Of a stretch of 64,000 nucleotides of DNA, positions 7,136 to 22,486 are shown one piece after another (the first letter of the stretch is position 1; each line of letters opens with the position of its first letter). This stretch comes from an uncultured Acidobacteriota bacterium (GTDB lineage Bacteria; Acidobacteriota; Thermoanaerobaculia; Thermoanaerobaculales; Sulfomarinibacteraceae). The stretch covers positions 138,908 through 202,907 of the forward strand of contig CAWFFJ010000015.1 of assembly GCA_963814875.1 (NCBI GenBank). Reading direction: 5' to 3'. Below the pieces are notes generated by a model. That model was not told the origin of the DNA. It was given only the letters and a program-made list of their open reading frames with translations, and made no database searches. Position numbers and translations under genes: made by a program.

Positions 7136-7592
7136 GCAGGTCGAGATCCGCCTGGTTGTGAATGGCGAGAGCCGGGCCTTCCGGGTCCCTCCGGGCCGGA
7201 GGCTGCTCGACCTGCTGCGCGATGACGCCGGCCTCACCGGCACCAAGGAGGGCTGCGGCACCGGCGAGTGCGGCGCCTGCGTGGTGCTCCTCGACGGCCG
7301 CCCGGTGACCTCGTGCCTGGTGCTTGCGGCGTCGTGCGACGGCCGCGAGGTGGTCACCGTTGAAGGTCTGGTCAGCAGCGACGGCGAGCTCCACCGGTTT
7401 CAGACGGCCCTGGTCGAAGCCGGCGGCGTCCAGTGCGGCTTCTGTACCCCGGGCCTGGTGATGACCGGCGCGGCGCTGCTCGAGGCCGGCGTCCGCGATC
7501 CGGACGAGGCCCGCCGCTTGATGTCCGGCAACCTGTGCCGCTGCACCGGCTACGCCAAGGTGCTCGCCGCGCTCGAGGAGGCGGGCTCGTGA
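7128..7592 (+). CDS. Mo-hydroxylase [2Fe-2S]-binding small subunit
   Basis: ATG 7128. CGTGECGACVV plus CGFCTPG...CRCTGY are the two [2Fe-2S] cysteine motifs. Confidence 0.9.
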   Translation: MAEQVEIRLVVNGESRAFRVPPGRRLLDLLRDDAGLTGTKEGCGTGECGACVVLLDGRPVTSCLVLAASCDGREVVTVEGLVSSDGELHRFQTALVEAGGVQCGFCTPGLVMTGAALLEAGVRDPDEARRLMSGNLCRCTGYAKVLAALEEAGS

Positions 7593-9904
7593 GCCCCCCG
7601 CTCGGCGGCGCCCACCCGCGCCCCGACGCCGCGGCCAAGGTTTCGGGCCAAACCCGCTACGTCGCCGACCTCGCGCTGCCCGGGATGCTGCACGCCGCGC
7701 TCGCGGTCTCGAGCGACGCCTCGGCCCGCGTGCTCGGAATCGACACCGGCGCCGCGCGCGCAGTGGCCGACGTGGTCGCGGTGCTGACCGCGGCCGACGT
7801 CCCCGGGGTCAACCAGGTCGGCGTCATCTTCCCCGACCAGCCTCTCCTGGTCGGTGACCGTGTTCGGATGGTGGGCGACCGGCTCGCGTTGGTCGCGGCG
7901 CGCACGCCCGAGGCGGCATGGGCGGGTGCACACGCGGTATCGGCCCGGCTCGACCCGCTGCCCGCGGTCCACGACCCGGTGGCGGCGCTCGCGCCGGAGT
8001 CGCCGAGGGTGCACGACGGCGGCAACCTGGTGCGCGAGTTCCGGGTGGTGCGGGGAGATCTCGCGGCCGAGAGAGAGCGCGCCGCGGTCGTCGTCGAGGC
8101 GGCCTACGAGGTCGGCGGGCAGGACCACGCCTACCTCGAGCCCCAGGGCTGCCTGGCGATCCCCGAGGGCCGTCGGCGGATCACCGTCATCGCCTCGTGC
8201 CAGTGTCCGTTCTACATCCAGCACGCGGTCGCACGCGTCCTGGACCTGCCGCTGGCGGCGGTGCGGGTCGAGCAGGCTCCCACCGGGGGCGCCTTCGGCG
8301 GCAAGGAGGACTACCCCTCGGAGCCGGCCGCGTGCGCGGCGCTGCTCGCCTGGCACACCGGGCGACCGGTGCGGCTGATCTTCCCACGCGAGCTCGACCT
8401 CCAGGTCACCACCAAGCGCCACGCAGTCGTGGTCCGCCACCGCTGGGGCGCCGACGCGGACGGCCGGCTGGTCTTCGCCGAGGTCGACGCGGTCCTCGAC
8501 GCGGGCGCCTACGCCGGCCTCTCGACCGTGGTCGCCGAGCGCGCCAACGTGTCCGCAATCGGCCCTTACGAGGTCCCGGCGGTGCGGGTGTCAACCAAGA
8601 TCGCGCTGACCAACAACCTCTTCGGCGGCGCCTTTCGCGGCTTCGGCGCGCCCCAGGTGACGTGGGCGGCCGAGGCGACCATGGACCGCCTCGCGCTCTC
8701 TCTCGACCTCGACCCGGTCGAGCTGCGGCGCCGCAACCTGCTCGACGACGACCACCCTGTGACCTGCACCGGTCAGGAGCTGCGACGGCCGGTGCTCGCC
8801 CGGGAGTGCCTCGAGCGCGCGGTCGAGCTCGCCCGCTGGGGCGACGGCGTCGCCGCGCCCACAGACGACCTCCGCGAGGGGCTCGGCGTCTCGCTCGTCA
8901 TGTACGGCTGCAACCTCCACCACGGCGGCCAGCGCCTCGACCGATCGTCGGCGGTGGTGATCCTGCAGCCGGACGCCTCGGCGATCGTGCGCGTCGGCCT
9001 CACCGAGATGGGCCAGGGCAACCTGGTCGCCTGCCAGACGGTCGCCGCCGCCGCCCTCGGGCTCGAGCCGTCTCGGGTCGAGGTCTGGCAGCCCGACACG
9101 ACCACGGTCGCGGACTCCGGACCGACCGTGGCCTCCCGCGGCGCCCACGCGTCCGGGATGGCGATCCTCGATGCCGTGCGCCGCCTGCGCGAGCGGCTCG
9201 ATCCCATCGCGGCCGAGCTGCTCGGGTGCCGGCCGGAGGAGCTCGAGCTCGTGGACGGGCTCGCCCGCGTCGCCGGATCTCCCGAGCGTGCGCTGCCCAT
9301 GGCCAGGGTCGCCGAGGAGATGGCTGCGCGCCGGATCGAGGGCGTCGCCACTGGCTGGTACCGCTCGCCCGAGCGCGCCTACGACGCTGCCACCGGTCAG
9401 GGCGCGCCGTACGAGTTCTACGCCTTTGCCTGCCACGTCGCCCGGGTCGAGGTCGACCCCGCCCTTGGGTTGGTCCACGTTCGCGAGGTCGCCGCGGCAC
9501 ACGACGTCGGCACCGTGCTCCACCGCGCCGCCCTCGAGGGCCAGGTCGAGGGCGGGGTGGTCCAGGCCATGGGATGGGCTCTGAGCGAGGCGCTCCACCT
9601 CGACCGCGGCCGACTGCTCAACCCCAACCTCACCGACTACGTGCTGCCGACCGCGGCCGACGCGCCCGCAGTCAAGATCGCGATCCTCGAGAGCGAGTCG
9701 GCGGCGGGTCCGTTCGGCGCCAAGGGGGTCGGCGAGCCGTCGTTCATCCCGACTGCGGCCGCGATCCGCAACGCGGTCGTTGCCGCGCTCGGGGTCGAGG
9801 TCGACCGCCTGCCGATGACCCCGGCCACCGTGGTCGCCGCCCAGGGCGAACAGCACCCCTACGCCTGGGTCCTCGCCCCCGTCCCGGCTACCGAACCCCG
9901 CTGA
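7589..9904 (+). CDS. Mo-hydroxylase molybdopterin-binding large subunit
   Basis: GTG 7589 overlaps the upstream stop (GTGA). KVSGQTRYVADL, HAYLEPQ and TGGAFGGKEDY motifs. 771 aa. Confidence 0.9.
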   Translation: MSPPLGGAHPRPDAAAKVSGQTRYVADLALPGMLHAALAVSSDASARVLGIDTGAARAVADVVAVLTAADVPGVNQVGVIFPDQPLLVGDRVRMVGDRLALVAARTPEAAWAGAHAVSARLDPLPAVHDPVAALAPESPRVHDGGNLVREFRVVRGDLAAERERAAVVVEAAYEVGGQDHAYLEPQGCLAIPEGRRRITVIASCQCPFYIQHAVARVLDLPLAAVRVEQAPTGGAFGGKEDYPSEPAACAALLAWHTGRPVRLIFPRELDLQVTTKRHAVVVRHRWGADADGRLVFAEVDAVLDAGAYAGLSTVVAERANVSAIGPYEVPAVRVSTKIALTNNLFGGAFRGFGAPQVTWAAEATMDRLALSLDLDPVELRRRNLLDDDHPVTCTGQELRRPVLARECLERAVELARWGDGVAAPTDDLREGLGVSLVMYGCNLHHGGQRLDRSSAVVILQPDASAIVRVGLTEMGQGNLVACQTVAAAALGLEPSRVEVWQPDTTTVADSGPTVASRGAHASGMAILDAVRRLRERLDPIAAELLGCRPEELELVDGLARVAGSPERALPMARVAEEMAARRIEGVATGWYRSPERAYDAATGQGAPYEFYAFACHVARVEVDPALGLVHVREVAAAHDVGTVLHRAALEGQVEGGVVQAMGWALSEALHLDRGRLLNPNLTDYVLPTAADAPAVKIAILESESAAGPFGAKGVGEPSFIPTAAAIRNAVVAALGVEVDRLPMTPATVVAAQGEQHPYAWVLAPVPATEPR

Positions 9905-9922
9905 CGCCATGGCAAGGATGCT

Positions 9923-10132
9923 CACCACCAAGACACCAAGACACCAAGCAGGCGCTGAAGGTGATCGATGGCTTCTGGGTCGGCGTAGTCCGACGTTGAC
10001 GGGGCTGCGTGAAGCCACAGAGGGCTCTTGATGGAGACTCCGTCATGCGAGAAGCAGCTCCTGAGAGGGAGTATCGGTTGGCGAACTGCCAGCATCTTTC
10101 GGACTCCCTTGGTGTCTTGGTGTCTTGGTGGT
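9923..10132. repeat. octamer-arm inverted-repeat element, copy 1 (no intact cargo)
   Basis: Left arm 9923-9948 is CACCACCAAGACACCAAGACACCAAG. Right arm 10108-10132 is CTTGGTGTCTTGGTGTCTTGGTGGT, its reverse complement. The 159-bp non-coding interior begins GGCGCTGAAGGTGA..ATGGCTT, like the interior next to 12865. Confidence 0.8.
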
Positions 10133-10163
10133 TTCTTTTCGCACGCTCCCGGTGGGGGGCGCG

Positions 10164-12785
<2,622 letters not shown>

Positions 12786-12807
<22 letters not shown>

Positions 12808-12865
12808 GACACAGGGGAGCACAGAGCCCCCGCCCACCCGAAGTGAAACCACCAAGACACCAAGG
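12786..12865. repeat. left composite terminus of the cassette
   Basis: GAACAAACCACAGAGGCACTGAGACACAGGGGAGCACAGAG (8-nt periodic CACNGAGN), then CCCCCGCCCACCCGAAGTGAA, then ACCACCAAGACACCAAGG. It contains the stop codon (12805-12807) of the XdhD-like gene. Confidence 0.85.
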
Positions 12866-12988
12866 CGCTGCAAGTGAATGGCTTGAGGCGGTGGGGTGAC
12901 AAGAACGAATCGGGCATGTAGGGAGCGGCTGGCACTAGCCCGGACCCCCAACCCCAGCTGCCTCTGGTAGCATCGCCGCGGAGAGCCA

Positions 12989-13642
12989 GTGTCGCTCGCG
13001 AAAACCCTCACCCCAGAGAAGGCGCTGATCTTCAGGATCACACATCAGAGGAACGTCCCGTGGATTCTTGAGCATGGGCTCCACTGCCGGAGCTCGAACA
13101 TCGTGGACTCGGACTTCGTGAGCATTGGCAATCAAGACCTGATCGACAAGCGCGCGTCTCGTCTCGTTCCGGCGCACCCGGGGGGCGAGCTCGGCGACTA
13201 TATCCCCTTCTATTTCACGCCATATTCGCCGATGCTCCTCAACATCAGGACGGGCCGCGGCAACGTGAAAAGGCGGCGCAACGAGGAGATCGCCATCTTG
13301 GTGTCATCGCTCGCCCGCCTGTCGGAGCACGGGGTCAGGTACTTGATCACAGATAGCCACGCCTTCCTGGCGACAGCGCAGTTTTCTACAAACCTCGATG
13401 ACCTCAGAGAGTGGCTCCCATGGGAGCACCTCCAGGAACGCAACTTCAAGAGGGACCCAGACGACCCGACAGCGTTCGAGCGCTACCAAGCGGAGGCCTT
13501 GGCGCACAAGGAAGTGCCTACTGAGGCGCTGTTGGGCGTCGTTTGTTACACTGAGGGCGTAAGATCCAACCTAGAAGCCGAGCGGGTGAAACGCCGGGTT
13601 GACCTCAAGGTCCTGACGAAGCCAGATTGGTATTTCCCATGA
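12989..13642 (+). CDS. darT: DarT ssDNA ADP-ribosyltransferase toxin (DUF4433)
   Basis: 217 aa. N-terminal IFRITHQRNVPWILEHGL and C-terminal ERYQAEALAHKEVP match the DUF4433 pattern (xHITHxxNLxxIL... / QAEfLV with a catalytic Glu). GTG start after GGAGAG. The stop overlaps the darG ATG (ATGA at 13639-13642). Confidence 0.85.
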   Translation: MSLAKTLTPEKALIFRITHQRNVPWILEHGLHCRSSNIVDSDFVSIGNQDLIDKRASRLVPAHPGGELGDYIPFYFTPYSPMLLNIRTGRGNVKRRRNEEIAILVSSLARLSEHGVRYLITDSHAFLATAQFSTNLDDLREWLPWEHLQERNFKRDPDDPTAFERYQAEALAHKEVPTEALLGVVCYTEGVRSNLEAERVKRRVDLKVLTKPDWYFP

Positions 13643-14712
13643 TGCGATTCACCTCGGGCAACATGCTCCAAGCCGACGTCGAGGCGCTGGTCAACACAGT
13701 TAACACCGTCGGCGTGATGGGTAAGGGCATCGCCTTGATGTTCAAGGAGGCGTACCCGGAGAACTTCAAGTCCTACGTCGCGGCGTACAAGCGTGGGGAG
13801 ATTCGAACCGGCCACATGTTCGTCACCGAATTGCCCGCACGCCTTGAGGGCGGTCCGCGGTGGATCATCAACTTCCCAACCAAGGAGCATTGGCGGGGCC
13901 GGTCGAGAATGGAGTGGATCACCAAAGGACTCGAGGACCTCCGCCGTGTCATTCGCGAGAGGGGGATCTCCTCGATCGCAGTACCGCCCCTCGGGTGCGG
14001 CGCGGGAGGCCTCAACTGGCCGGATGTTCGGGCGGCGATCGTGGAGGCACTCGGCGATCTCAAGGCAGTCAACGTGGTCGTCTACGAGCCGACCTCGCAG
14101 TACCAGAACGTCACCAAACGGCGTGGCCTGCAGAAGCTCACGCCGGCCCGGGCGATGGTGGCCGAGTTGGTGCGCAGCTACTCCGTGCTCGGCATCGAGT
14201 GTTCGGTCCTCGAAATCCAGAAGATGGCCTGGTTCCTTGAGCGCAGCATCGAGAAACTGGACCTCCCCAACCCTCTCAACCTCTGCTTCGAGGCCAATAG
14301 GTACGGGCCGTACGCCGACCGGCTCCGCCACCTACTCGACGACCTTGACGGTAGCTACCTGCACTGTGAGCGCCGCCTGGCGGACGCGCGCCCCGCCGAC
14401 GCCATTTGGTTCGACGATGCCAAGCGGGACCTCGTCGCCGCCTACCTCGGCTCCGGCGACGCCAAGCAATACCAGGACGCGCTCGACAGGACGACCGCAC
14501 TGATCGACGGCTTCCAGTCGCCTCTCGGTCTCGAGCTGCTGGCGACGGTGGATTGGCTCGTCGCCCGCGAGGGGGTTGAGCCCGAGCTTCAGGCTGTTCG
14601 CGACGCGCTTGCGCACTGGCCAGGCGGCAGATCCGCCGGCGAGCGCAAGCTGCGCCTCTTCGACGACCGCATGCTCGGTTTGGCCCTCGAGCGCCTTTCC
14701 TCAACAACCTAG
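13639..14712 (+). CDS. darG: DarG macrodomain antitoxin (ADP-ribosyl-DNA glycohydrolase) with C-terminal DarT-binding region
   Basis: GNMLQADVEALVNTVNTVGVMGKGIALMFKEAYPENF...SIAVPPLGCGAGGL is a Macro-domain signature. A roughly 200-aa helical C-terminal domain follows. It is translationally coupled to darT. Confidence 0.85.
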   Translation: MMRFTSGNMLQADVEALVNTVNTVGVMGKGIALMFKEAYPENFKSYVAAYKRGEIRTGHMFVTELPARLEGGPRWIINFPTKEHWRGRSRMEWITKGLEDLRRVIRERGISSIAVPPLGCGAGGLNWPDVRAAIVEALGDLKAVNVVVYEPTSQYQNVTKRRGLQKLTPARAMVAELVRSYSVLGIECSVLEIQKMAWFLERSIEKLDLPNPLNLCFEANRYGPYADRLRHLLDDLDGSYLHCERRLADARPADAIWFDDAKRDLVAAYLGSGDAKQYQDALDRTTALIDGFQSPLGLELLATVDWLVAREGVEPELQAVRDALAHWPGGRSAGERKLRLFDDRMLGLALERLSSTT

Positions 14713-14786
14713 GTACCCACAGTTAGGGCAGCACACCTTCGTTCTCCGCCCTCGAGCGCACACAACGCCGGCTGTCGCCTTAGCCC

Positions 14787-14815
14787 TTGCCAACATCGTG
14801 TGGACATCGTATATT
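14787..14815 (+). promoter_or_regulatory. candidate sigma70-type promoter for the TIR-NLR operon
   Basis: TTGCCA (14787-14792), then a 17-nt spacer, then TATATT (14810-14815), about 30 nt upstream of ATG 14846. The spacer carries a direct repeat ACATCGT-GTGG-ACATCGT. It sits in an AT-richer 133-bp gap after darG. Confidence 0.35.
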
Positions 14816-14845
14816 TCGTTAGAAGGCTCGAGTCGGAGGGTCGTC

Positions 14846-15337
14846 ATGGAAACCAAGATCCGCTTCTTCGCTTCCTACGCTGCCAAGGATGGGGCCTTGG
14901 CCGAACGGCTTCTGGAACCGCTTCGCTCGCACCTCGCGGCGTCGAAGCGCTTCGCAGTCACGGTGTGGGACTTCCATCGGCTGTTGGTGGGCGAGCGGTG
15001 GCACGTGAGGATCCTGGCTGAGCTTGACCGGAGCGATTTCGGTCTGCTGCTGCTCAGCCCGGCGTTCTTGACGTCGAGGTACATCGACGAGCACGAGCTG
15101 CCCCGTCTCGTCGGAAAAGGTGAGAAGCCTGTGATCCCGGTCTGTCTGAGGCTCATCGACCTCGAACGCCAGAGCATGAAAGGGCTCGAGCAGTATCAAC
15201 TCTTCCGGCTCGGCGGCCGCACCTTCTCCCAGCTGACGACGGCTGCTCAGCGGGAGCGCTTCGTCTTCGAGCTTTACCGTCAGATCGAGGACCGCGTCGC
15301 TTCCCTGTGGGCACATGGCAGCGGTGAGGCGCCATGA
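14846..15337 (+). CDS. stand-alone TIR-domain protein (163 aa)
   Basis: ATG 14846 follows GGAGGG. KIRFFASYAAKDGALAERL...DFGLLLLSPAFLTSRYIDEHELPRL fits the bacterial TIR pattern (F-x-SY..D ... S..Y..S.(W/Y)x..E). The stop overlaps the next ATG (ATGA at 15334-15337). Confidence 0.8.
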   Translation: METKIRFFASYAAKDGALAERLLEPLRSHLAASKRFAVTVWDFHRLLVGERWHVRILAELDRSDFGLLLLSPAFLTSRYIDEHELPRLVGKGEKPVIPVCLRLIDLERQSMKGLEQYQLFRLGGRTFSQLTTAAQRERFVFELYRQIEDRVASLWAHGSGEAP

Positions 15338-18300
15338 TCGCTGCACGTCGTCGCCTGGGTGGCGGAGCATTGCGAGCAGTGCTGCCGCGGATTGAGGAGC
15401 AGTTAGGCTCGGCCGACTGCGCACGCCTACACCAGTGCTTGGATGCCCAGGACGGCGATCGCCTGCAGATGGCGCGGCTCCTTGAAAGGCTGTTCCCTGG
15501 GAAGTCCACACAGGAAGGGCAGGCCTCGCTGCGGAGCTTCCGGCAAGCATTCAACCGAGCTGCTGAAAATGCGGGGCTCGCCGTTTCCTTCACCGCCGAC
15601 ACGAAGAAACGCACACCGGCGGCCGAGCGTTGGTGCTGGTTCGAGGGTGAGGGGCTCGATGAGGCGACCATGGCGGAACGGTCCGCCGCCGAGGCGGAGC
15701 CCACGGACCCCGAGCGAATGGTCCGGCCACAAGCGAAGAAGCTCGACGCTCGTCAGGTTGTGCGCTGGGTCGTACTGGCCGCACCGCCTGACGGGGACGC
15801 AGCACGCCCGTTCATTGTCGAGCTGGAAAAGTCCCTTCGCGGCTCAAGCCGGTATGACTTCGTTGGCTGGGCGCCGTGGAACGTTCTGGCCGGCGAGAGG
15901 CCCGAGGAGGAGAGGGCGCGCCAGCTCGAGAAGGCCGACCTCGTCCTGGCCATGGTCAGCGCAGGCTTCGCGGCCGACCCTGCCGTCGTTGAGCTGTCGG
16001 ACGACGCCGTCGAGGCTGGGAAGATCGTCGTCCCGGCCCTCCTCAGCCAAGTCGACCCGAAGCGTCAGCGACTGGGCAGAATCGGCGATATCGAGCTATT
16101 CCCAAAGAACGGCAAGTCGTGTGCCGGCTGCTCCTTGCACCAGCGGGGGCAGCTGGCACACGAGCTGTTCACGGTAATCGTCGAGCGAATGGAGAAGGCA
16201 TGCGATGAGGGCGAGAAGCATCGAATCAAGGCGGAGACGGCCCTCGAGCGAGCTTTCCGGGACGATCTCGACGACTCGGGCTTTCCGGCTGAGCCGGTCC
16301 CGAGCCGCGGTCGCCTGACCAAGATCCGGCTGCTGCGAGCCGAACGTGATGAGCGCACAACGGGCCGCATCGACGGCTTCGACGCGGTCGACTACCTGGC
16401 ACGGTGGGCCGCCGACCCCTCCTCGCCCCCGTTCTGCGCTCTGCTCGGCGAGGTCGGCATCGGCAAGACCACCGCCTGCCAGCTCCTCACGCTTCGCTTG
16501 CTTGCAGCACGGAAGGAGGATCCCGGACTCCCGCTCCCGATCTACCTCGATCTGCGGCGCTACTCCTGGGACGGGAAGGTCGACTTCACCCTCGAGCAGA
16601 TCCTCGATGCCGTCCTGAGCCGGAGCTGGCGCGCAGGCTTCGGCGCGCCTCTCGGCGCAGAGGGCGTGATACGCCTCGTCACCGAGGCGGGGGCACTGGC
16701 GATCTTCGACGGGCTCGACGAGGTCCTGGTGCATATGCAGCCGAAGCTCGGCCAGGACTTCATCCGCGAGCTGTGGCGCCTCAGGCCGCCCGTGCGCCGC
16801 CGGGCCAAGCTCACCGACAGGGCGAGAGGAGGCAAGCTGCTGCTTTCATGCCGGTCGCACTACTTCCGCACCGTGCTCGAGCAGAACGCACTGCTCCTCG
16901 GCGAGGAGCGCGAGGGTCTCAGGGGCGAGGACTACGACGCCCTGGAGCTGCTGCCCTTCGACGCCCAACAGATCGAGAGCTACCTGCGGCGAAACCTCCC
17001 CGAAGTCGACGTCGAGCGGGCGCTCGAGCTGATCAGGTCGGTCCACAACCTGCCAGAGCTCGCCGAGCGACCTTTCACCCTGTCGCTGATCGGTGAGCAC
17101 CTGCCCGAGCTGGAGGCGAAGCGGGTCGCCGGCGGCACAGCCCGAGGCATCGACCTCTACCAGGCGGTGGTGGATCGCTGGCTCCAGCGCGACCACGGCA
17201 AGCACCAGCTCAACCCGAGCCACAAGCGGCTGCTCATGGAGAACCTCTCCGCCGAGCTGTGGCGCGCCGGCCGACGCGAGTGGGGCTGTGAGCAGCTCGA
17301 GGCATGGCTTGACGGGTTTCTGTTCGCCAACCCGATCATCGAGGGCGCCTATCGGACCATTGAGCGCGAGGTGCTCAAAGAGGACCTCCGCACCGCCACC
17401 TTTGTCGTGCGCACCGACGACGACACCTTCCGCTTTGCGCACTCCTCATTACAGGAGTACTTCCTCGCATCGAGGCTCCACCGGGCGCTCCGCGAGAATC
17501 ACCCCGAGGCGTGGGCGATCCCCATGCCCTCGGAAGAGACCCTCGGCTTCCTGCTTGAGCTGCTCGAGTCGCGCCCGGAGGACCGCGAGGCGTGCGAAGG
17601 AACGCTCTGCGACATCCTGGCCGTATACCGCCCGCAGGCAAGCGAGCTCGCCTTCAAAGTGTGGCTTCTCGCCCACAGCAACGGTAGGCCCCTTCCCCGA
17701 CCAAAGTGTTTCGACCTCCACGGGGCGGATTTGGCCGGTTGGCACATCTCCGCGCCGCCAGGCCGGTTGGTCGATCTGACGGGTGCCGATCTCCGGAACG
17801 CAAACTTGCGACGCGCCGTACTCGAGCGCGTCACCCTCAACGACGTTGACCTGCGAGGGAGCGATGCCGTCGCGGCCGAGCTTCACGAGGTCGAGCTGCA
17901 TGGAGCGCTGGTATCTGACGCCGACCTCACCGCCACTCTCTGGCGCCGGTCGCGGGTGGTGGATATCGACTTTTCCAAGACGCGTCTCGAGGGCTCGCGC
18001 ATGATCCGGTCGACTCTGAAGAGGGTCACCTTGCCAGGCGCGCGGGGGGAGGTGCTCGCGAGCTGCATGGTCGACGGGGCGGAGCACTCGTCCCTGGACT
18101 CTCGAGGCGGCGCGACGCTGGGGCTCTTCACCGGACATTCAAGTAACGTCGCATCCTGCGCGGTCGCGCCCGACGGCCGCCGCGGGCTCTCCGCGGGTGA
18201 CGACGGCACCGTCAGGCTCTGGGACCTCGACTCCGGCGAGTGCCTGCGCGTGCTCGAGGGACATCGAGCCGGGGTCTCGGCGTGCGCGGTCGCCCCCGAC

Positions 18301-19446
18301 GGCCGCCGCGCGCTCTCCGCGGGTGACGACGGCACCGTCAGGCTCTGGGACCTCGACTCCGACGAGTGCCTGCGCGTGCTCGAGGGGCATCGAGGCCGGG
18401 TTTTGGGGTGCGCGGTCGCCCCCGACGGCCGCCGCGCGCTCTCCGCGGGTGACGACGGCACCGTCAGGCTCTGGGACCTCGACTCCGACGAGTGCCTGCG
18501 CGTGCTCGAGGGACATCGAGGCGGGGTCTCGGCGTGCGCGGTCACCCCCGACGGCCGCCGCGCGCTCTCCGCGGGTCGTGACGACGGCACCGTCAGGCTC
18601 TGGGACCTCGACTCCGGCGAGTGCCTGCGCGTGCTCGAGGGACATCGAGCCGGGGTCTGGGCGTGCGCGGTCGCCCCCGACGGCCACCGCGCGCTCTCCG
18701 CGGGTGGTGGCGACTTCACCGTCAGGCTCTGGGACCTCGACTCCGGCGAGTGCCTGCGCGTGCTCGAGGGGCACGGGCACACCTCTTGGGGGTGCGCGGT
18801 CGCCCCCGACGGCCGCCGCGCGCTCTCCGCGGTTGACGACGGCACCGTCAGGCTCTGGGACCTCGACTCCGGCGAGTGCCTGCGCGTGCTCGGGGGCCAT
18901 CGACACTGGGTTAGGGGGTGCGCGGTCGCGCCCGACGGCCGCCGCGCGCTCTCCGCGGGTCGTGACGACGGCACCGTCAGGCTCTGGGACCTCGACTCCG
19001 GCGAGTGCCTGCGCGTGCTCGAGGGCCATCGACGCTGGGCCTGGGCGTGCGCGGTCGCGCCCGACGGCCGCCGTGCGCTCTCCGCGGGTGACGACGGCAC
19101 CGTCAGGCTCTGGGACCTCGACTCCGGCGAGTGCCTACACGTGCTCGAGGGCCATCGAGGCGAGGTCTGGGCGTGCGCGGTCGCGCCCGACGGCCGCCGC
19201 GCGCTCTCCGCGGGTGACGACGGCACCGTCAGGCTCTGGGACCTCGACTCCGGCCTCGAGACGCTGACCATGGCAACCCTGCCTGGCGGCGAGGCCGCGG
19301 CCCTCGACCCGATTTCAGGCACATGCCGGCGTGCCTCGCCCGGCGCCTGGCGGTGGCTCGGATGGCTCGCCCGCGACCCCGAGACCTGCAAAATCCGCCG
19401 CTACCCCGCCGAGAGCTTTGGCCCGCTGCCCGGGTCTGAAGACTGA
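15334..19446 (+). CDS. NLR-like STAND NTPase: unassigned N-module / TIR-like domain / NACHT / pentapeptide repeats / 9 WD40 repeats (1370 aa)
   Basis: A TIR-like alpha/beta block spans aa 142-242 (VVRWVVLAAPPDG...ADLVLAMVSAGFAADPAVVEL; 15757-16059). Walker A GEVGIGKTT is at 16447-16473 and Walker B LAIFDGLDEV at 16696-16725. A pentapeptide-like block covers aa 793-900 (ADLRNANLRRAVLERVTLNDVDLRGSD...; 17710-18033). Nine GH...TVRLWD WD40 units span 18133-19255. Confidence 0.85.
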   Translation: MIAARRRLGGGALRAVLPRIEEQLGSADCARLHQCLDAQDGDRLQMARLLERLFPGKSTQEGQASLRSFRQAFNRAAENAGLAVSFTADTKKRTPAAERWCWFEGEGLDEATMAERSAAEAEPTDPERMVRPQAKKLDARQVVRWVVLAAPPDGDAARPFIVELEKSLRGSSRYDFVGWAPWNVLAGERPEEERARQLEKADLVLAMVSAGFAADPAVVELSDDAVEAGKIVVPALLSQVDPKRQRLGRIGDIELFPKNGKSCAGCSLHQRGQLAHELFTVIVERMEKACDEGEKHRIKAETALERAFRDDLDDSGFPAEPVPSRGRLTKIRLLRAERDERTTGRIDGFDAVDYLARWAADPSSPPFCALLGEVGIGKTTACQLLTLRLLAARKEDPGLPLPIYLDLRRYSWDGKVDFTLEQILDAVLSRSWRAGFGAPLGAEGVIRLVTEAGALAIFDGLDEVLVHMQPKLGQDFIRELWRLRPPVRRRAKLTDRARGGKLLLSCRSHYFRTVLEQNALLLGEEREGLRGEDYDALELLPFDAQQIESYLRRNLPEVDVERALELIRSVHNLPELAERPFTLSLIGEHLPELEAKRVAGGTARGIDLYQAVVDRWLQRDHGKHQLNPSHKRLLMENLSAELWRAGRREWGCEQLEAWLDGFLFANPIIEGAYRTIEREVLKEDLRTATFVVRTDDDTFRFAHSSLQEYFLASRLHRALRENHPEAWAIPMPSEETLGFLLELLESRPEDREACEGTLCDILAVYRPQASELAFKVWLLAHSNGRPLPRPKCFDLHGADLAGWHISAPPGRLVDLTGADLRNANLRRAVLERVTLNDVDLRGSDAVAAELHEVELHGALVSDADLTATLWRRSRVVDIDFSKTRLEGSRMIRSTLKRVTLPGARGEVLASCMVDGAEHSSLDSRGGATLGLFTGHSSNVASCAVAPDGRRGLSAGDDGTVRLWDLDSGECLRVLEGHRAGVSACAVAPDGRRALSAGDDGTVRLWDLDSDECLRVLEGHRGRVLGCAVAPDGRRALSAGDDGTVRLWDLDSDECLRVLEGHRGGVSACAVTPDGRRALSAGRDDGTVRLWDLDSGECLRVLEGHRAGVWACAVAPDGHRALSAGGGDFTVRLWDLDSGECLRVLEGHGHTSWGCAVAPDGRRALSAVDDGTVRLWDLDSGECLRVLGGHRHWVRGCAVAPDGRRALSAGRDDGTVRLWDLDSGECLRVLEGHRRWAWACAVAPDGRRALSAGDDGTVRLWDLDSGECLHVLEGHRGEVWACAVAPDGRRALSAGDDGTVRLWDLDSGLETLTMATLPGGEAAALDPISGTCRRASPGAWRWLGWLARDPETCKIRRYPAESFGPLPGSED
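18133..19255 (+). repeat. nine tandem 126/129-bp coding repeats (WD40 units) inside the NLR gene
   Basis: Units start at 18133, 18259, 18385, 18511, 18640, 18769, 18895, 19024 and 19150. Between units 2 and 3 the last ~99 nt (GTGCGCGGTCGCCCCCGACGGCCGCCGCGCGCTCTCCGCGGGTGACGACGGCACCGTCAGGCTCTGGGACCTCGACTCC...) are identical, and the other units differ only slightly there. Differences cluster in the first ~27 nt of each unit. Confidence 0.9.
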
Positions 19447-19538
19447 GGCAAACTGGTCGTTGCCGCGGCTGTCCTTCAAGGCCCGGATCGGCTTCCGACC
19501 TTTGGCTTTCTATGGTCTCGCCCTGGGCGGGTGGGCGG

Positions 19539-19632
19539 CTTGGTGTCTTGGTGTCTTGGTGGTTCACTCTTGGGCGGGTGGGGGCTTTCAAACCCTCTGT
19601 GCGTCTCTGTGCCTCAGTGTCTCTGTGGTTTG
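19539..19632. repeat. right composite terminus of the cassette
   Basis: CTTGGTGTCTTGGTGTCTTGGTGGTTCACTCTTGGGCGGGTGGGGGCTTTCAAACCCTCTGTGCGTCTCTGTGCCTCAGTGTCTCTGTGGTTTG is the reverse complement of the left terminus modules. It ends 13 nt before the hydantoinase stop codon (19645-19647). Confidence 0.85.
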
Positions 19633-19644
19633 TCCTTCGTCCCG

Positions 19645-21000
19645 CTACGCCTTCGCCAGCAGCCGGCCGCGGGGGTGGTCGCGGTCGGTCAGAGCGCCGT
19701 CGCGGACCACCTCGACGCCGCCGAGCAGGACGTGGCGGATCGCGAGCCGGGTGGTCGCCGTGGGGAACGGAGGGTAGGCGTCCGCGAGGGTCGGCCGCAC
19801 CGGACGCGCCGGTCCCGCCGGGTCGACCACCACCAGGTCGGCGTCGGCCCCGGGGCGGATGACCCCCTTACGTTCGGCGAGACCCAGTACCCGCGCCGGG
19901 GCGGCCGAGAGCATCGAAGCGAAACGCGGCAGCGGCCACTTGTGGCGCTCGACGAGCAGCTCCCAGGCCAGGGGCAGCAGGGCGCCGACACCGGGCAGCC
20001 CACTCGGGACCGCGCGCAGGTCGCCGGCGAAAACATCCTTGTCGGCGCGGCGGAACGGGCAGTGGTCGGAGGCGAGCAGGTCGACCGCCCCCTCGGCAAC
20101 CACCGCCTCGAGGGCGGCGCGGACCGCCGACGGACGCAGGGGTGGGGTGCACAGCCGGCGGTGACCGCCATAGCCGGCGAGCGCGCGCTCGTCGAGCAGC
20201 AGGTAGTGCGGCGCGGTCTCCGAGGTCACCGCGGCGGAAGCCCGGGAGGCGGCGATCCGGCCTGCTCCGTAGGCGGTCGAGACGTGGACCACATGGGTCG
20301 CACAGCCGGTGCGCTCGGCGAGGTCGAGCAGCTTGGAGATCGCCGCGATCTCCGCCCGCTCCGGGCGCAGGCGGGCGTGGTTCTGCGGGTTCGAGAGGTC
20401 GAGGTCTGAGGCATCGACCATGTCGAGGATCTCCTGGTCCTCACAGTGGACGAGCACCGTGGCGCCGAGATCGGCGAAGCGCAGCATCGCCCCCTCGAGC
20501 CGGTCCCAGGGCGTGAACAGGCCGGCCTCGCGGTAGGTCGTGTAGAGCTTGAAGGTGGCGAAGCCGTCCGCAACCAGGGCCTCGATCTCATCCCAGTCCC
20601 AACTCTCCCCGGTCGGCGTCAGGTGCAGGGCGAGGTCGGCGTGGAGGCGCCCCCGCGCCTTGGCGACCATCCTCCCGACCGCCGCGGCCAGGCTCTCCCC
20701 CGGGCGCTGGGTGACGAAGGAGGCGATCGTGGTGACACCTTCGCGCACCGCGGCCTCGGTGCCGGAGGCGAAGTCGTCGGCGATCGGAACGCCTGCGACC
20801 TCGTCGTCGAGGTGGACGTGGAGGTCGATCACGCCGGGCAGCACCACGCACCCGGAGGCGTCGATCACGGCCTCGTCCGGGCGGCGCTCGCACCGGCCGA
20901 CCTCCATGATGTGCGTGCCCTCGACCCGCACGTCGGTCGAGGCTTCGCCGTCAGGAGTGACCACCAGCCCGCCCGCGACCAGCACCCCGCCTTCGCTCAT
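19645..21000 (-). CDS. cyclic amidohydrolase (D-hydantoinase / dihydropyrimidinase, HyuA-like)
   Basis: Start moved to ATG 21000 (MSEGGVLVAGGLVVTPDG...). The GVIDLHVHLDD metal-binding motif and 451-aa length are typical of hydantoinases. Confidence 0.85.
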   Translation of the reverse strand: MSEGGVLVAGGLVVTPDGEASTDVRVEGTHIMEVGRCERRPDEAVIDASGCVVLPGVIDLHVHLDDEVAGVPIADDFASGTEAAVREGVTTIASFVTQRPGESLAAAVGRMVAKARGRLHADLALHLTPTGESWDWDEIEALVADGFATFKLYTTYREAGLFTPWDRLEGAMLRFADLGATVLVHCEDQEILDMVDASDLDLSNPQNHARLRPERAEIAAISKLLDLAERTGCATHVVHVSTAYGAGRIAASRASAAVTSETAPHYLLLDERALAGYGGHRRLCTPPLRPSAVRAALEAVVAEGAVDLLASDHCPFRRADKDVFAGDLRAVPSGLPGVGALLPLAWELLVERHKWPLPRFASMLSAAPARVLGLAERKGVIRPGADADLVVVDPAGPARPVRPTLADAYPPFPTATTRLAIRHVLLGGVEVVRDGALTDRDHPRGRLLAKA

Positions 21001-21027
21001 CGCACCACCCCCACCCTCCCGATGCCA

Positions 21028-21119
21028 AACCACAAAGGCACGAAGACACAAAGAAATCCACAACGATTCTGGTGCCGCAGGCTCATGTCCTCTCTGTGTG
21101 TTTTTGTGTCTTCGTGGTG
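21028..21119. repeat. octamer-arm inverted-repeat element, copy 3 (diverged, minimal hairpin)
   Basis: AACCACAAAGGCACGAAGACACAAAGAAATCCACAA (21028-21063) pairs with TCTCTGTGTGTTTTTGTGTCTTCGTGGTG (21091-119) around a 27-nt loop. It has the same CACNAAGN periodicity and is preceded by the C-rich CACCACCCCCACCCTCCC (21003-21020), as in the other copies. It lies between the hydantoinase start and the ssnA-like stop. Confidence 0.6.
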
Positions 21120-21142
21120 AAAAGCGCGCTCCATCGCGGGCC

Positions 21143-22486
21143 TCAGATCCGGACCCAGAGCGCGGCGGCGCGCTCCCTCGCGTGGGCCGCGATCTCGGCC
21201 GGGTCGAGGTCGAGCTCGAGTGAGCCGTCGGCCATCAGGACCCGGCCGGCCACGACCGTCGTGACCACCGGCGCCAGCGCCATACCGAACACCAGGTGGC
21301 CGGCGAATGTGCTCGCGTCGAACGGGGTCGGCGGGTCGTAGTCGAGCACGATGAGGTCCGCGGCATAGCCTTCCCGCAGCTCGCCGACCCCCTCCGGCCA
21401 CAGCCGGGTGGCAATCGCCGGGTTGCCCGCGGTCAGCGCCGCGACCGCCTCGCCGAAGCCCGCGCCCGGGTCGCGCCGCGCCAGGCGCTGACTCCACACC
21501 GCGGCGCGCAGCTCCTCGCGCATGTCCACGGTCATCGCATCGGTGCCGAGCCCGACAAGTACTCCGGCGGCCGCCATTGCGGGCACGTCCGCGACGCCGA
21601 CCGCGTTGTTCATGTTGGACTGCGGGTTGTGGATCAGGGCGGTGCCGGTGTCGGCGAGGAGCTCGAGCTCGCCCTGGTCGAGGTGGACTCCGTGCGCCGC
21701 CACGCTCGAAGGGCCGAGCAGCCGGTGGCGGTGCAACCGCTCGACCACGCGGCAGCCGTGCTCGGCGAGGCAGTGGGCCTGGTCGGCGGTCGACTCGGCG
21801 ACGTGGACGTGGACGCCCACCCCGTGCTCGGCGGCGATCCCCGCCGCGCGCTCGAGGGTGGCGTCGGAGAGGGTGAACGAGGCGTGGAGCCCGACCAGGC
21901 CGGTGAGCAGCGGCTCCGGGCGCGCGCGCAGCCGGCGCAGGAAGCTCTCGTTCTCGGCCAGACCGGCGTCGCGGACGTCCGCCCCGTCGCGGTCGGAGAC
22001 CTCGTAGCACAGGCACGACCTGACACCGACGGCAAGGACCGCGTCGGCGAGGACCTCGAGCGAGCCGACCACAGCGCCCGGGCTGGCGTGGTGGTCGACG
22101 AGCGTGGTGGTGCCGTGGCGGACGGCGTCGAGGAGGGCGACGAGGGCCGAGACCCGGCAGTCCTCGAGCTCGAGCGCGCGGTCGAGGCGCCACCACAGAT
22201 GGCGCAGCACCTCGACGAAGTCGAGTGACGGCTCGGCGCCGCCGAAGCCGCGCACCAGGCTCGAATAGAAGTGCATGTGGGCGTTGATCAGTCCCGGCAT
22301 CACTACCCGCCCGCGGGCGTCGAGCTCACGTCCGAGAACGCCGATCGCCTCGCGGTCGGGCACCAACCGGACGATCTGCCCTCCCTCGCACACCACGGCG
22401 TGGTCCGGCAGCACGTCGCACGACGCTCCGAGAGTGACCACCGTGCCGTGGCGCACCACCAGGCGATCGCTTGAGCTGCGGCCCAC
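21143..22486 (-). CDS. ssnA: SsnA-like amidohydrolase (chlorohydrolase/aminohydrolase family)
   Basis: 447 aa. It has PGLINAHMHFYSSLVRG, the family's metal-binding HxH motif. The GTG start abuts the stop of the upstream YgfK-like gene. Confidence 0.8.
   Translation of the reverse strand: MGRSSSDRLVVRHGTVVTLGASCDVLPDHAVVCEGGQIVRLVPDREAIGVLGRELDARGRVVMPGLINAHMHFYSSLVRGFGGAEPSLDFVEVLRHLWWRLDRALELEDCRVSALVALLDAVRHGTTTLVDHHASPGAVVGSLEVLADAVLAVGVRSCLCYEVSDRDGADVRDAGLAENESFLRRLRARPEPLLTGLVGLHASFTLSDATLERAAGIAAEHGVGVHVHVAESTADQAHCLAEHGCRVVERLHRHRLLGPSSVAAHGVHLDQGELELLADTGTALIHNPQSNMNNAVGVADVPAMAAAGVLVGLGTDAMTVDMREELRAAVWSQRLARRDPGAGFGEAVAALTAGNPAIATRLWPEGVGELREGYAADLIVLDYDPPTPFDASTFAGHLVFGMALAPVVTTVVAGRVLMADGSLELDLDPAEIAAHARERAAALWVRI

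Follow-up and report, generated by a model that had tools for sequence, protein, structure and literature searches.

Near-identical WD40 repeats with variable residues on the predicted top face in an NLR-type gene of an uncultured Acidobacteriota bacterium

Arrays of near-identical WD40 repeats that differ at a few positions are known from both fungi and prokaryotes. The HNWD/NWD proteins of Podospora anserina (HET-E, HET-D and HET-R) have a NACHT domain followed by WD40 units of 42 residues that are 80–100% identical, and the functional alleles of het-d and het-e carry 10–12 repeats plus cryptic C-terminal blades, other repeat numbers being inactive (PMC12222747). The Highly-Repetitive WD40 proteins of prokaryotes have an internal identity of at least 0.7, often 14 repeats, and hotspot sites that are still diverse (PMC5587647); the main text of that study, by Hu et al. 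(2017), does not mention NACHT, so it draws no link to NLR architecture. Bacterial NLRs with WD or TPR repeats that are 80–90% identical were reported by Dyrka et al. (2020), who proposed a fungal-like rapid diversification, and the preprint by Kibby et al. defines the NNH domains and lists beta-propellers and pentapeptide repeats among the sensors of bacterial NACHT proteins. Here we describe an array of this kind in the window, a stretch of 64,000 nucleotides from an uncultured Acidobacteriota bacterium (contig CAWFFJ010000015.1, positions 138,908 to 202,907), where it lies in the C-terminal part of an NLR-type protein. We think it probable that the array serves a bacterial protein of the STAND/NLR type as its ligand sensor, homogenised by recombination and diversified at the residues of its top face.

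The protein, which is 100% identical to the database protein P0188, has the tripartite layout of effector, NACHT and repeats that is known from bacterial NACHT proteins (Kibby et al. preprint): NNH6 (88–88.7 bits against a cut-off of 27) and a TIR-like domain are followed by NACHT and then by a pentapeptide-repeat segment and the WD40 array (Table 1). NACHT exceeds its Pfam cut-off, and its Walker A (GEVGIGKT) and Walker B (DGLDE) motifs, read from the translation, are intact, in agreement with an initial annotation of this DNA that had called the protein a bacterial NLR. NCBIfam pentapeptide models match the pentapeptide segment weakly, and a Pfam scan of the NLR found no HET, NB-ARC, CARD or caspase domain.

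With the fungal HNWD proteins the locus shares the order of NACHT and WD40, hypervariable residues at the same repeat positions (PMC1805685, PMC12222747), repeat-number polymorphism, cryptic divergent C-terminal blades and difficulty with short-read assembly. It differs in being bacterial, in carrying NNH6 and TIR instead of HET at the N-terminus, in the pentapeptide segment between NACHT and WD40, and in that repeat-induced point mutation cannot act on it. Like an HNWD protein, the window NLR joins NACHT to conserved WD40 units with about four to seven hypervariable surface codons; it would work like HNWD but, for want of a HET domain, falls outside that family. Among prokaryotic proteins it resembles the Highly-Repetitive WD40 proteins, for instance Npun_R6612 of Nostoc punctiforme (2YMU), in its internal identity of at least 0.7, conserved framework and variable hotspots, and the modal 14 units of that class, read as two propellers, are also the mode of the family studied here. 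In contrast, 2YMU is a crystallised WD40-only fragment, and the window array consists of nine units and a family-specific cryptic blade. The tested bNACHT proteins in the figure legend of the Kibby et al. preprint end in LRR, HEAT or other C-termini rather than in highly repetitive WD40 units. The locus fits both the bacterial NACHT proteins and the Highly-Repetitive WD40 class.

Tandem Repeats Finder reports a single array in the window, at 18157–19254 (period 126, 8.6 copies, 91% matches, score 1768), and no other array scoring 80 or more. The units lie in the frame of the open reading frame (ORF) 15334–19446 and number nine, each beginning with a GH dipeptide, with starts at 18133, 18259, 18385, 18511, 18640, 18769, 18895, 19024 and 19150 and lengths of 42, 42, 42, 43, 43, 42, 43, 42 and 42 codons. 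The initial annotation had described just this arrangement of nine units of 42–43 codons, and its start at 18133 holds; its end at 19255 does not, as unit 9 reaches 19275 and is followed by a tail of 56 residues. The strings that it listed for residues 3–8 are exact in all nine units (SSNVAS, RAGVSA, RGRVLG, RGGVSA, RAGVWA, GHTSWG, RHWVRG, RRWAWA and RGEVWA), as are the variants of a second variable spot (SAGDDGT, SAGRDDGT, SAGGGDFT and SAVDDGT). This second spot, columns 22–26, takes up four codons in unit 1 (18196–18207) and five in the 43-codon units, the extra codon being CGT, GGT and CGT in units 4, 5 and 7. The Pfam WD40 model (PF00400) matches nine stretches with E = 1.4e-98 and 319.6 bits against a cut-off of 27.

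Outside the variable columns the units differ only slightly, as first described: framework nucleotide identity across units is 97.2%, and in the codon-by-codon table many framework codons have all three positions unchanged in every unit. The longest exact repeat, between units 2 and 3, measures 105 nt (18282 vs 18408) where about 99 nt had been estimated. Columns 3–8, on the other hand, hold three to six different codons apiece. Columns 3–8 account for 58% of the pairwise amino-acid differences among units 1–8 and columns 22–26 for 19%, so that 11 of the 43 columns hold 77% of them, and a six-column window equally rich in differences arose in 1 of 100,000 column shuffles (permutation p = 1e-5). 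Mean pairwise identity of the units is 0.85 by an alignment-based measure (not WDSP), which is above the 0.7 of the Highly-Repetitive class, and that class's diversity at predicted top-face hotspots is likewise present in columns 3–8 and 22–26. Neither blastn nor tblastn found another WD40 unit in the 64-kb window, and no paralogous pool of repeats is seen there.

In order to place the variable columns in the fold, we built an AlphaFold2 model with an alignment of 24 family C-termini (pLDDT 87.6, pTM 0.83); the single sequence by itself gave a poor model (pLDDT 72, with 40–49 for the remaining four). Each unit forms one four-stranded blade in the alignment-based model, with columns 1–5 in the D-A loop, 6–11 in strand A, 12–16 in the A-B loop (APDGR), 17–22 in strand B and 23–26 in the B-C turn, after which come strands C and D with the C-D loop (LDSG) between them. 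The variable columns take in the last part of the D-A loop, the opening residues of strand A and the B-C turn, while the A-B and C-D loops are unchanged across units. WD40 propellers by convention have a top face made up of D-A loops and B-C turns, with the A-B and C-D loops at the bottom, so the variable columns of the model all belong to the top face. A place in the core or a random scatter, either of which would have spoken against the reading when it was first proposed, is not what the model shows. The 56-residue tail models as four further strands (pLDDT ~75–81 over most of its length), which suggests a cryptic tenth blade after the nine units.

The best match by sequence among solved structures is 2YMU (E = 8e-137). 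With Foldseek, the model superposes best on eight-bladed propellers, namely 5nnz_A (332 columns superposed with an rmsd of 2.8 Å and a target-normalised TM of 0.88) and Tako8 (TM 0.82–0.86). Chains of Apaf-1, whose propellers comprise 15 blades in a 7 + 8 arrangement, are among the sequence and fold matches. Like the Apaf-1-type STAND proteins, the family here places about 15 blades after an NTPase (14 WD units and a cryptic blade in most members). The window protein differs from Apaf-1 in having NACHT rather than NB-ARC, TIR rather than CARD or caspase, near-identical repeats, and 9 + 1 blades.

A database search with the N-terminal 933 amino acids of the NLR returned 63 relatives, and a wider search returned at least 802 clusters (50% identity) at E ≤ 1e-30, many of them about 1560–1620 amino acids long. 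Named members belong to Acidobacteriota, Proteobacteria and Verrucomicrobiota and are not classically multicellular. All complete members share the C-terminal tail (…AWRWLGW…RYPAExFGPLP), which matches no Pfam family. For the 17 members with high internal identity we calculated the entropy of each column within the protein, and the same six columns are hottest across all 17: column 7 (2.10 bits), 23 (1.97), 5 (1.74), 4 (1.43), 3 (1.10) and 25 (0.96). Columns 5 and 7 flank a conserved Val and columns 23 and 25 a conserved Asp. The likeness to fungal HET-E and HET-D that the initial annotation had drawn proves to extend position for position, as the hot columns match the selected codons 7, 9, 25 and 27 of the fungal repeats with the same flanking arrangement (PMC1805685), and columns 3, 4, 5, 7, 23 and 25 equal positions 10, 11, 12, 14, 30 and 32 (Hu register) used for het-d/het-e (PMC12222747), with a register shift of 7 that we infer from the repeat definition.

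Nei–Gojobori counts were used to compare pN/pS, the ratio of non-synonymous to synonymous differences per site, between the six hot codons and the other 36 in five arrays. The ratio was 1.92 against 0.45 in the window, 1.63 against 0.38 in L002, 1.50 against 0.09 in L005, 1.25 against 0.32 in L006 and 1.53 against 0.36 in L008 (L numbers denote contigs with other family members). Taken with the concentration of differences in columns 3–8 and 22–26, this per-codon comparison bears out the pattern first proposed and is consistent with diversifying selection at the six hot codons. For the window array alone, a ratio above 1 rests on very few sites, and the support comes from the agreement across the five arrays. 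Within the window, pS and pN are 0.30 and 0.46 in the patch and 0.04 and 0.036 in the framework; the synonymous differences gather in columns 1–12, with pS reaching 0.71 at the GH codons, whereas in the other four arrays pS is spread more evenly along the unit. The window's framework is freshly homogenised, rather than the patch being simply fast, and synonymous variants beside the selected codons are presumably shielded from conversion along with those codons.

It is unlikely that the repeats are merely young, the product of a recent tandem amplification in which the variable positions drift neutrally and have no role in recognition. High internal identity was read as recent duplication by Hu et al. 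(PMC5587647), and pN/pS in the window patch is only 1.2–1.9, from a handful of sites at which synonymous differences are raised too. Drift would, however, have to spare the bottom-face loops APDGR and LDSG, which are equally exposed yet invariant, and to pick out the same six columns in 17 proteins whose consensus units are on average 58% identical. It would also have to yield pN/pS above 1 at the hot codons in five of five arrays, with 0.09–0.45 elsewhere, at the very positions that are under positive selection in the fungal genes. Of the rapidly evolving recognition surface that the initial annotation had put forward, the location on the top face and the recurrence through the family stand, while selection, from informal pN/pS counts, and a ligand are what we infer.

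Within each of the 17 proteins the units are 0.71–0.93 identical, while the consensus units of different proteins average 0.58, and the window consensus is 0.46–0.71 identical to the others, P0002 excepted. As units are so much more alike within proteins than consensus units are between them, the repeats appear to evolve in concert, which indicates homogenisation within each gene that becomes visible only against members more distant than L002. A species-specific homogenisation between the window and L002 was considered and rejected, as no difference is fixed and framework identity between the two arrays (0.949) falls between the values within each (0.972 and 0.939). We also considered a signature of GC-biased gene conversion. 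The array has a G+C of 0.753, about 8 points above the 0.669 of the rest of the gene (15334–18132), and its G+C at third codon positions (GC3) is 0.895 against 0.822 in the N-terminal part. This GC3 excess recurs in L002 and L005 but not in L006 and L008, and because of that inconsistency it is unreliable as a sign of biased conversion.

The relative that comes closest to the window NLR is P0002, encoded on contig L002, with 89% identity over the N-terminal part (91% at the DNA level) and with the same framework and the same tail. It carries 14 units, however, and only two of the nine six-residue cassettes of the window, RGGVSA and RGEVWA, occur in it, so that the comparison with relatives proposed at the outset shows a difference in both unit number and cassettes. 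The 9-unit and 14-unit versions are both present in sample ERZ25039495.

These observations can be assembled into a mechanism. Recombination between units, whether by unequal crossing-over, slippage or gene conversion, would keep the 126-bp units near-identical, and when it joins misaligned units would also alter their number and reshuffle their order. Selection would at the same time keep six surface positions per blade diverse: three where the D-A loop ends, one where strand A begins and, in the B-C turn, the two on either side of the conserved Asp. These positions would jointly tile the top face of the propeller as a mosaic that differs from blade to blade, is rich in R, G and W, and may bind a non-self ligand. 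By analogy with other NLRs, binding would release NACHT-driven oligomerisation and so gather TIR domains, the fused one and possibly that of a small TIR protein encoded by the gene upstream and co-transcribed with it. The TIR domains would then degrade or process NAD+ and stop the infected cell.

A dedicated hypermutation system that targets the variable codons, such as a diversity-generating retroelement (DGR), seems scarcely credible as the source of this diversity, even though bacterial conflict systems and NACHT proteins are known to include sensors diversified by DGRs (PMC10907252; Kibby et al. preprint). By blastn and tblastn there is no second copy of the unit elsewhere in the 64-kb window that could serve as a template repeat. 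We rejected template-directed hypermutation on this ground, the reverse transcriptase not having been searched for exhaustively. The variation is moreover not adenine-specific, with a single A in the consensus patch CGA GGC GGG GTC TGG GCG, and the targets of DGRs are typically lectin or FGE-type folds, not WD40.

Several points weigh against recombination-driven homogenisation of a diversified sensor as set out above. The pN/pS ratios above 1 are informal counts, and the hot columns were ranked partly on the same data; these columns do agree with positions that were defined independently in fungi. Framework pS is 0.04 in the window and 0.08–0.4 in the other four arrays, and very recent homogenisation of the framework, or its over-smoothing by polishing, would contribute part of the contrast seen in the window. 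The TIR_2 match of the NLR lies under the Pfam cut-off (20.2 bits vs 28), a weak call that is reinforced by the TIR_2 domain on record for many family members and by the similarity of this stretch to the small TIR protein (25% identity over 147 amino acids, E = 5e-11). In PADLOC the NLR matches no Avs model at E ≤ 0.01 and no bNACHT model, its sole match being that of the WD40 region to HEAT-ARM_XIII. With 9 + 1 blades in place of 14 + 1 the window allele might be non-functional, because fungal alleles with the wrong number of repeats are non-reactive (PMC12222747). Lastly, both the unit count and the precise variable codons come from assemblies. Contig L003 (ENA ERZ25039495 contig_13974) represents the same locus, window 12863–19529, at 99.5% identity and also with nine units, but all 32 differences from the window lie in 17839–19241 and 30 of them inside the array. 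They include nine deletions of 1 nt that break the frame, and 15 of the 21 substitutions within the array switch to the state of another unit. L003 is probably a noisy consensus over the repeats, of the kind that cross-mapped reads would produce, although a co-existing strain that had undergone gene conversion would leave similar traces.

This brings us to the number of units, which we counted from the first WD40 unit to the tail in 41 complete members. The mode is 14 units (24 of 41), members with diverged repeats all have 14, and the window alone has nine. The normal architecture of the family is therefore 14 WD units and one cryptic blade, and against this norm the nine units of the window look contracted, or possibly collapsed. 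The initial annotation had called nine blades atypical; the nine units stand, but nine as the blade count of one propeller does not, given the cryptic tenth blade and the 14 + 1 norm, and the number is a matter of contraction or collapse rather than evidence for a nine-bladed propeller. Deviation from the modal unit number goes with no more than a trend towards higher internal identity (0.72 vs 0.64, one-sided Mann-Whitney p = 0.06). In P0003, P0032, P0035, P0048, P0049 and P0052, only one or two WD40 units separate the pentapeptide segment from the tail; these six are likely collapsed assemblies or strongly contracted alleles.

That the array is partly a product of assembly, the true gene having more units (14, for example) and some of its hypervariable codons being chimeric, is improbable to our minds, although its chance is large enough to be reckoned with. 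The 14 units of most members and of the 91%-identical relative, the collapse-like members with one or two units, and the confinement of the L003 differences to 17839–19241, with their 1-nt deletions, would all fit such an origin. Short-read assemblers moreover omit or create units in repeats of this kind in published tests (PMC12222747), the risk of collapse or expansion that was flagged at the outset. On the other side, the window and L003 each carry nine units over an equal length, and the path through the array is resolvable because no 127-mer in it occurs twice and exact repeats do not exceed 105 nt. The reading frame is kept across nine units and three in-frame insertions of one codon, and the contig from which the window comes is 474,660 bp long. 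P0009 and P0034 were each recovered as identical proteins from two independent samples, and their arrays are therefore identical between samples. We accordingly trust the existence of the array and its general pattern, have moderate confidence in the number nine, and do not fully rely on individual variable codons.

A role in immunity would fit the sensor that we propose, and the neighbourhood of the gene bears on it. A complete DarT-DarG module lies directly upstream of the gene for the small TIR protein and the NLR gene (Table 1). The stop codon of the TIR gene overlaps the NLR start by 4 nt, which points to translational coupling, and a small TIR gene also lies upstream of the NLR gene of the 14-unit relative L002. 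It does not stand beside P0021, P0009 or P0034, and among the members examined is confined to the lineage of the window and L002. The small TIR protein looks like a duplicated effector domain of the NLR. Homology between the window and L002 starts at 14785, and this, with the promoter-like site just downstream of that point, makes the TIR and NLR genes a unit independent of DarTG; as a relative of about 90% identity is homologous only from there on, DarTG and the TIR-NLR pair are separable modules.

We give little weight to the alternative that this STAND protein has nothing to do with immunity and acts in signalling or as a scaffold, its WD40 face binding a partner of the host cell. In its favour, fusions of WD40 to kinases and other signalling modules are common in prokaryotes (PMC5587647), the NLR matches no defence model of PADLOC, and other family members stand alone in ordinary neighbourhoods. 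The combination of TIR and NACHT argues against it, as does NNH6, which was defined in the NACHT-protein survey of Kibby et al. The window gene also sits beside DarT-DarG and a ThsB-like TIR protein, toxin-antitoxin genes adjoin other members of the family, and diversification from blade to blade is hard to square with a single conserved host partner.

Earlier work has described highly repetitive prokaryotic WD40 proteins with variable hotspots as well as bacterial NLRs that carry repeats of this sort, and the gain made here is incremental because the general phenomenon is in the literature. What our analysis adds is the position-for-position match to the selected fungal sites in a specific, large bacterial clade, together with the architecture of 14 units and one cryptic blade and the contrast of nine and 14 units between close relatives. 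If the immune sensor that we favour is real, bacteria vary an intracellular immune receptor much as filamentous fungi do, with an identical, recombining scaffold on which a few ligand-facing residues differ. We regard as possible, though doubtful, a more far-reaching version in which the clade of NNH6-TIR-NACHT-pentapeptide-WD40 proteins is the true prokaryotic counterpart of HNWD. This would entail continual intragenic shuffling of cassettes, polymorphism within populations, shared ancestry or a shared structural solution for the hypervariable positions, a 9 + 1 allele caught in mid-contraction, and a gene that travels in a small mobile block with inverted octamer repeats at its ends. The locus is compact and tractable, being one operon with a close relative of different repeat number and cassettes, and thus suits tests of repeat shuffling and specificity. 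It also serves as a warning that repeat number and variable codons in such genes are not to be trusted from consensus assemblies without spanning reads.

Table 1. Positions of the features discussed (nucleotides of the window; amino acids, aa, of the encoded protein in brackets).
Feature	Position	Strand	Basis or remark
Xanthine-dehydrogenase-type genes flanking the block	7433-12899		
Inverted repeat, left arm	12777-12864	.	ends (ACCAAGAC)n ACCAAG at 12851-12864
DarT, ssDNA ADP-ribosyltransferase toxin	12989-13642	+	Pfam DarT, E = 2.6e-49
DarG, macrodomain antitoxin	13627/13639-14712	+	NCBIfam antitoxin_DarG, E = 2.9e-124; PADLOC DarG, E = 2.6e-119
Promoter-like site TTGCCA-17-TATATT	14787-14815	+	consensus match only; 30 nt upstream of TIR gene
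Small stand-alone TIR protein, 163 aa	14846-15337	+	Pfam TIR_2, E = 8.1e-11; PADLOC ThsB-like, E = 2.5e-10
NLR-type gene, 1370 aa: NNH6, TIR-like, NACHT, pentapeptide, nine WD40, C-terminal tail	15334-19446	+	ORF, domains
NNH6, NACHT N-terminal helical domain 6 (aa 12-120)	15367-15693	+	Pfam PF22737, E = 3.8e-25 to 6.4e-25
TIR-like domain (aa 158-256)	15805-16101	+	Pfam TIR_2, E = 8.8e-4
NACHT NTPase (aa 368-555)	16435-16998	+	Pfam PF05729, 31.5 bits vs cut-off 26.7
Pentapeptide-repeat segment (~aa 794-905)	17713-18048	+	Pfam PF00805, E = 3.9e-12
WD40 array, nine tandem units of high internal conservation	18133-19275	+	repeat finding, Pfam, codon table
Hypervariable patch, columns 3-8, unit 1	18139-18156	+	per-codon table
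Hypervariable patch, units 2-5	18265-18282, 18391-18408, 18517-18534, 18646-18663	+	same offset as unit 1
Hypervariable patch, units 6-9	18775-18792, 18901-18918, 19030-19047, 19156-19173	+	same offset as unit 1
B-C turn of unit 1, second variable spot, columns 22-26	18196-18210	+	codon table, model
Conserved C-terminal tail, 56 residues	19276-19443	+	…GEAAALD…TCRRAS…AWRWLGW…IRRYPAESFGPLPG
Inverted repeat, right arm	19539-19644	.	starts CTTGGT(GTCTTGGT)n at 19539-19560
Amidohydrolase genes flanking the block	19645-22486	-	

ORFs of 296–502 amino acids with repetitive products run through the array in other frames, at 17883–19391 (-), 18139–19029 (-) and 18197–19267 (+). They are taken to be by-products of the GC-rich in-frame repeat, not genes.

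The flanking xanthine-dehydrogenase genes have relatives of 72–76% identity that are named Thermoanaerobaculia or Acidobacteriota. G+C is 60–68% over 13.0–18.0 kb and 71–74% around it, which is only weak evidence of a foreign origin of the block because much of the dip lies at codon positions 1 and 2. In L010, a relative of 80% identity, the two xanthine-dehydrogenase genes are 10 nt apart with no insert, and the octamer motif of the inverted arms is absent from its 21.8 kb. Rfam and tRNA scans found no RNA genes in the window.

The DarT-DarG-TIR-NLR block is bracketed by the inverted pair of octamer repeats, with inverted similarity for about 70 nt further outward, and L003 coincides exactly with what lies between the two octamer motifs. 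Three further instances of this inverted pair are present in the window, at 9927–9948/10108–10129, 27957–27978/28392–28413 and 30683–30696/30854–30875, enclosing 158, 413 and 157 nt respectively; the stretch of 413 nt holds a gene for a GxxExxY protein (TIGR04256, E = 3e-42). The octamer motif is also found downstream of the NLR gene in L002, and the inverted pairs may be mobile units resembling miniature inverted-repeat transposable elements or cassettes, or hot spots of insertion.

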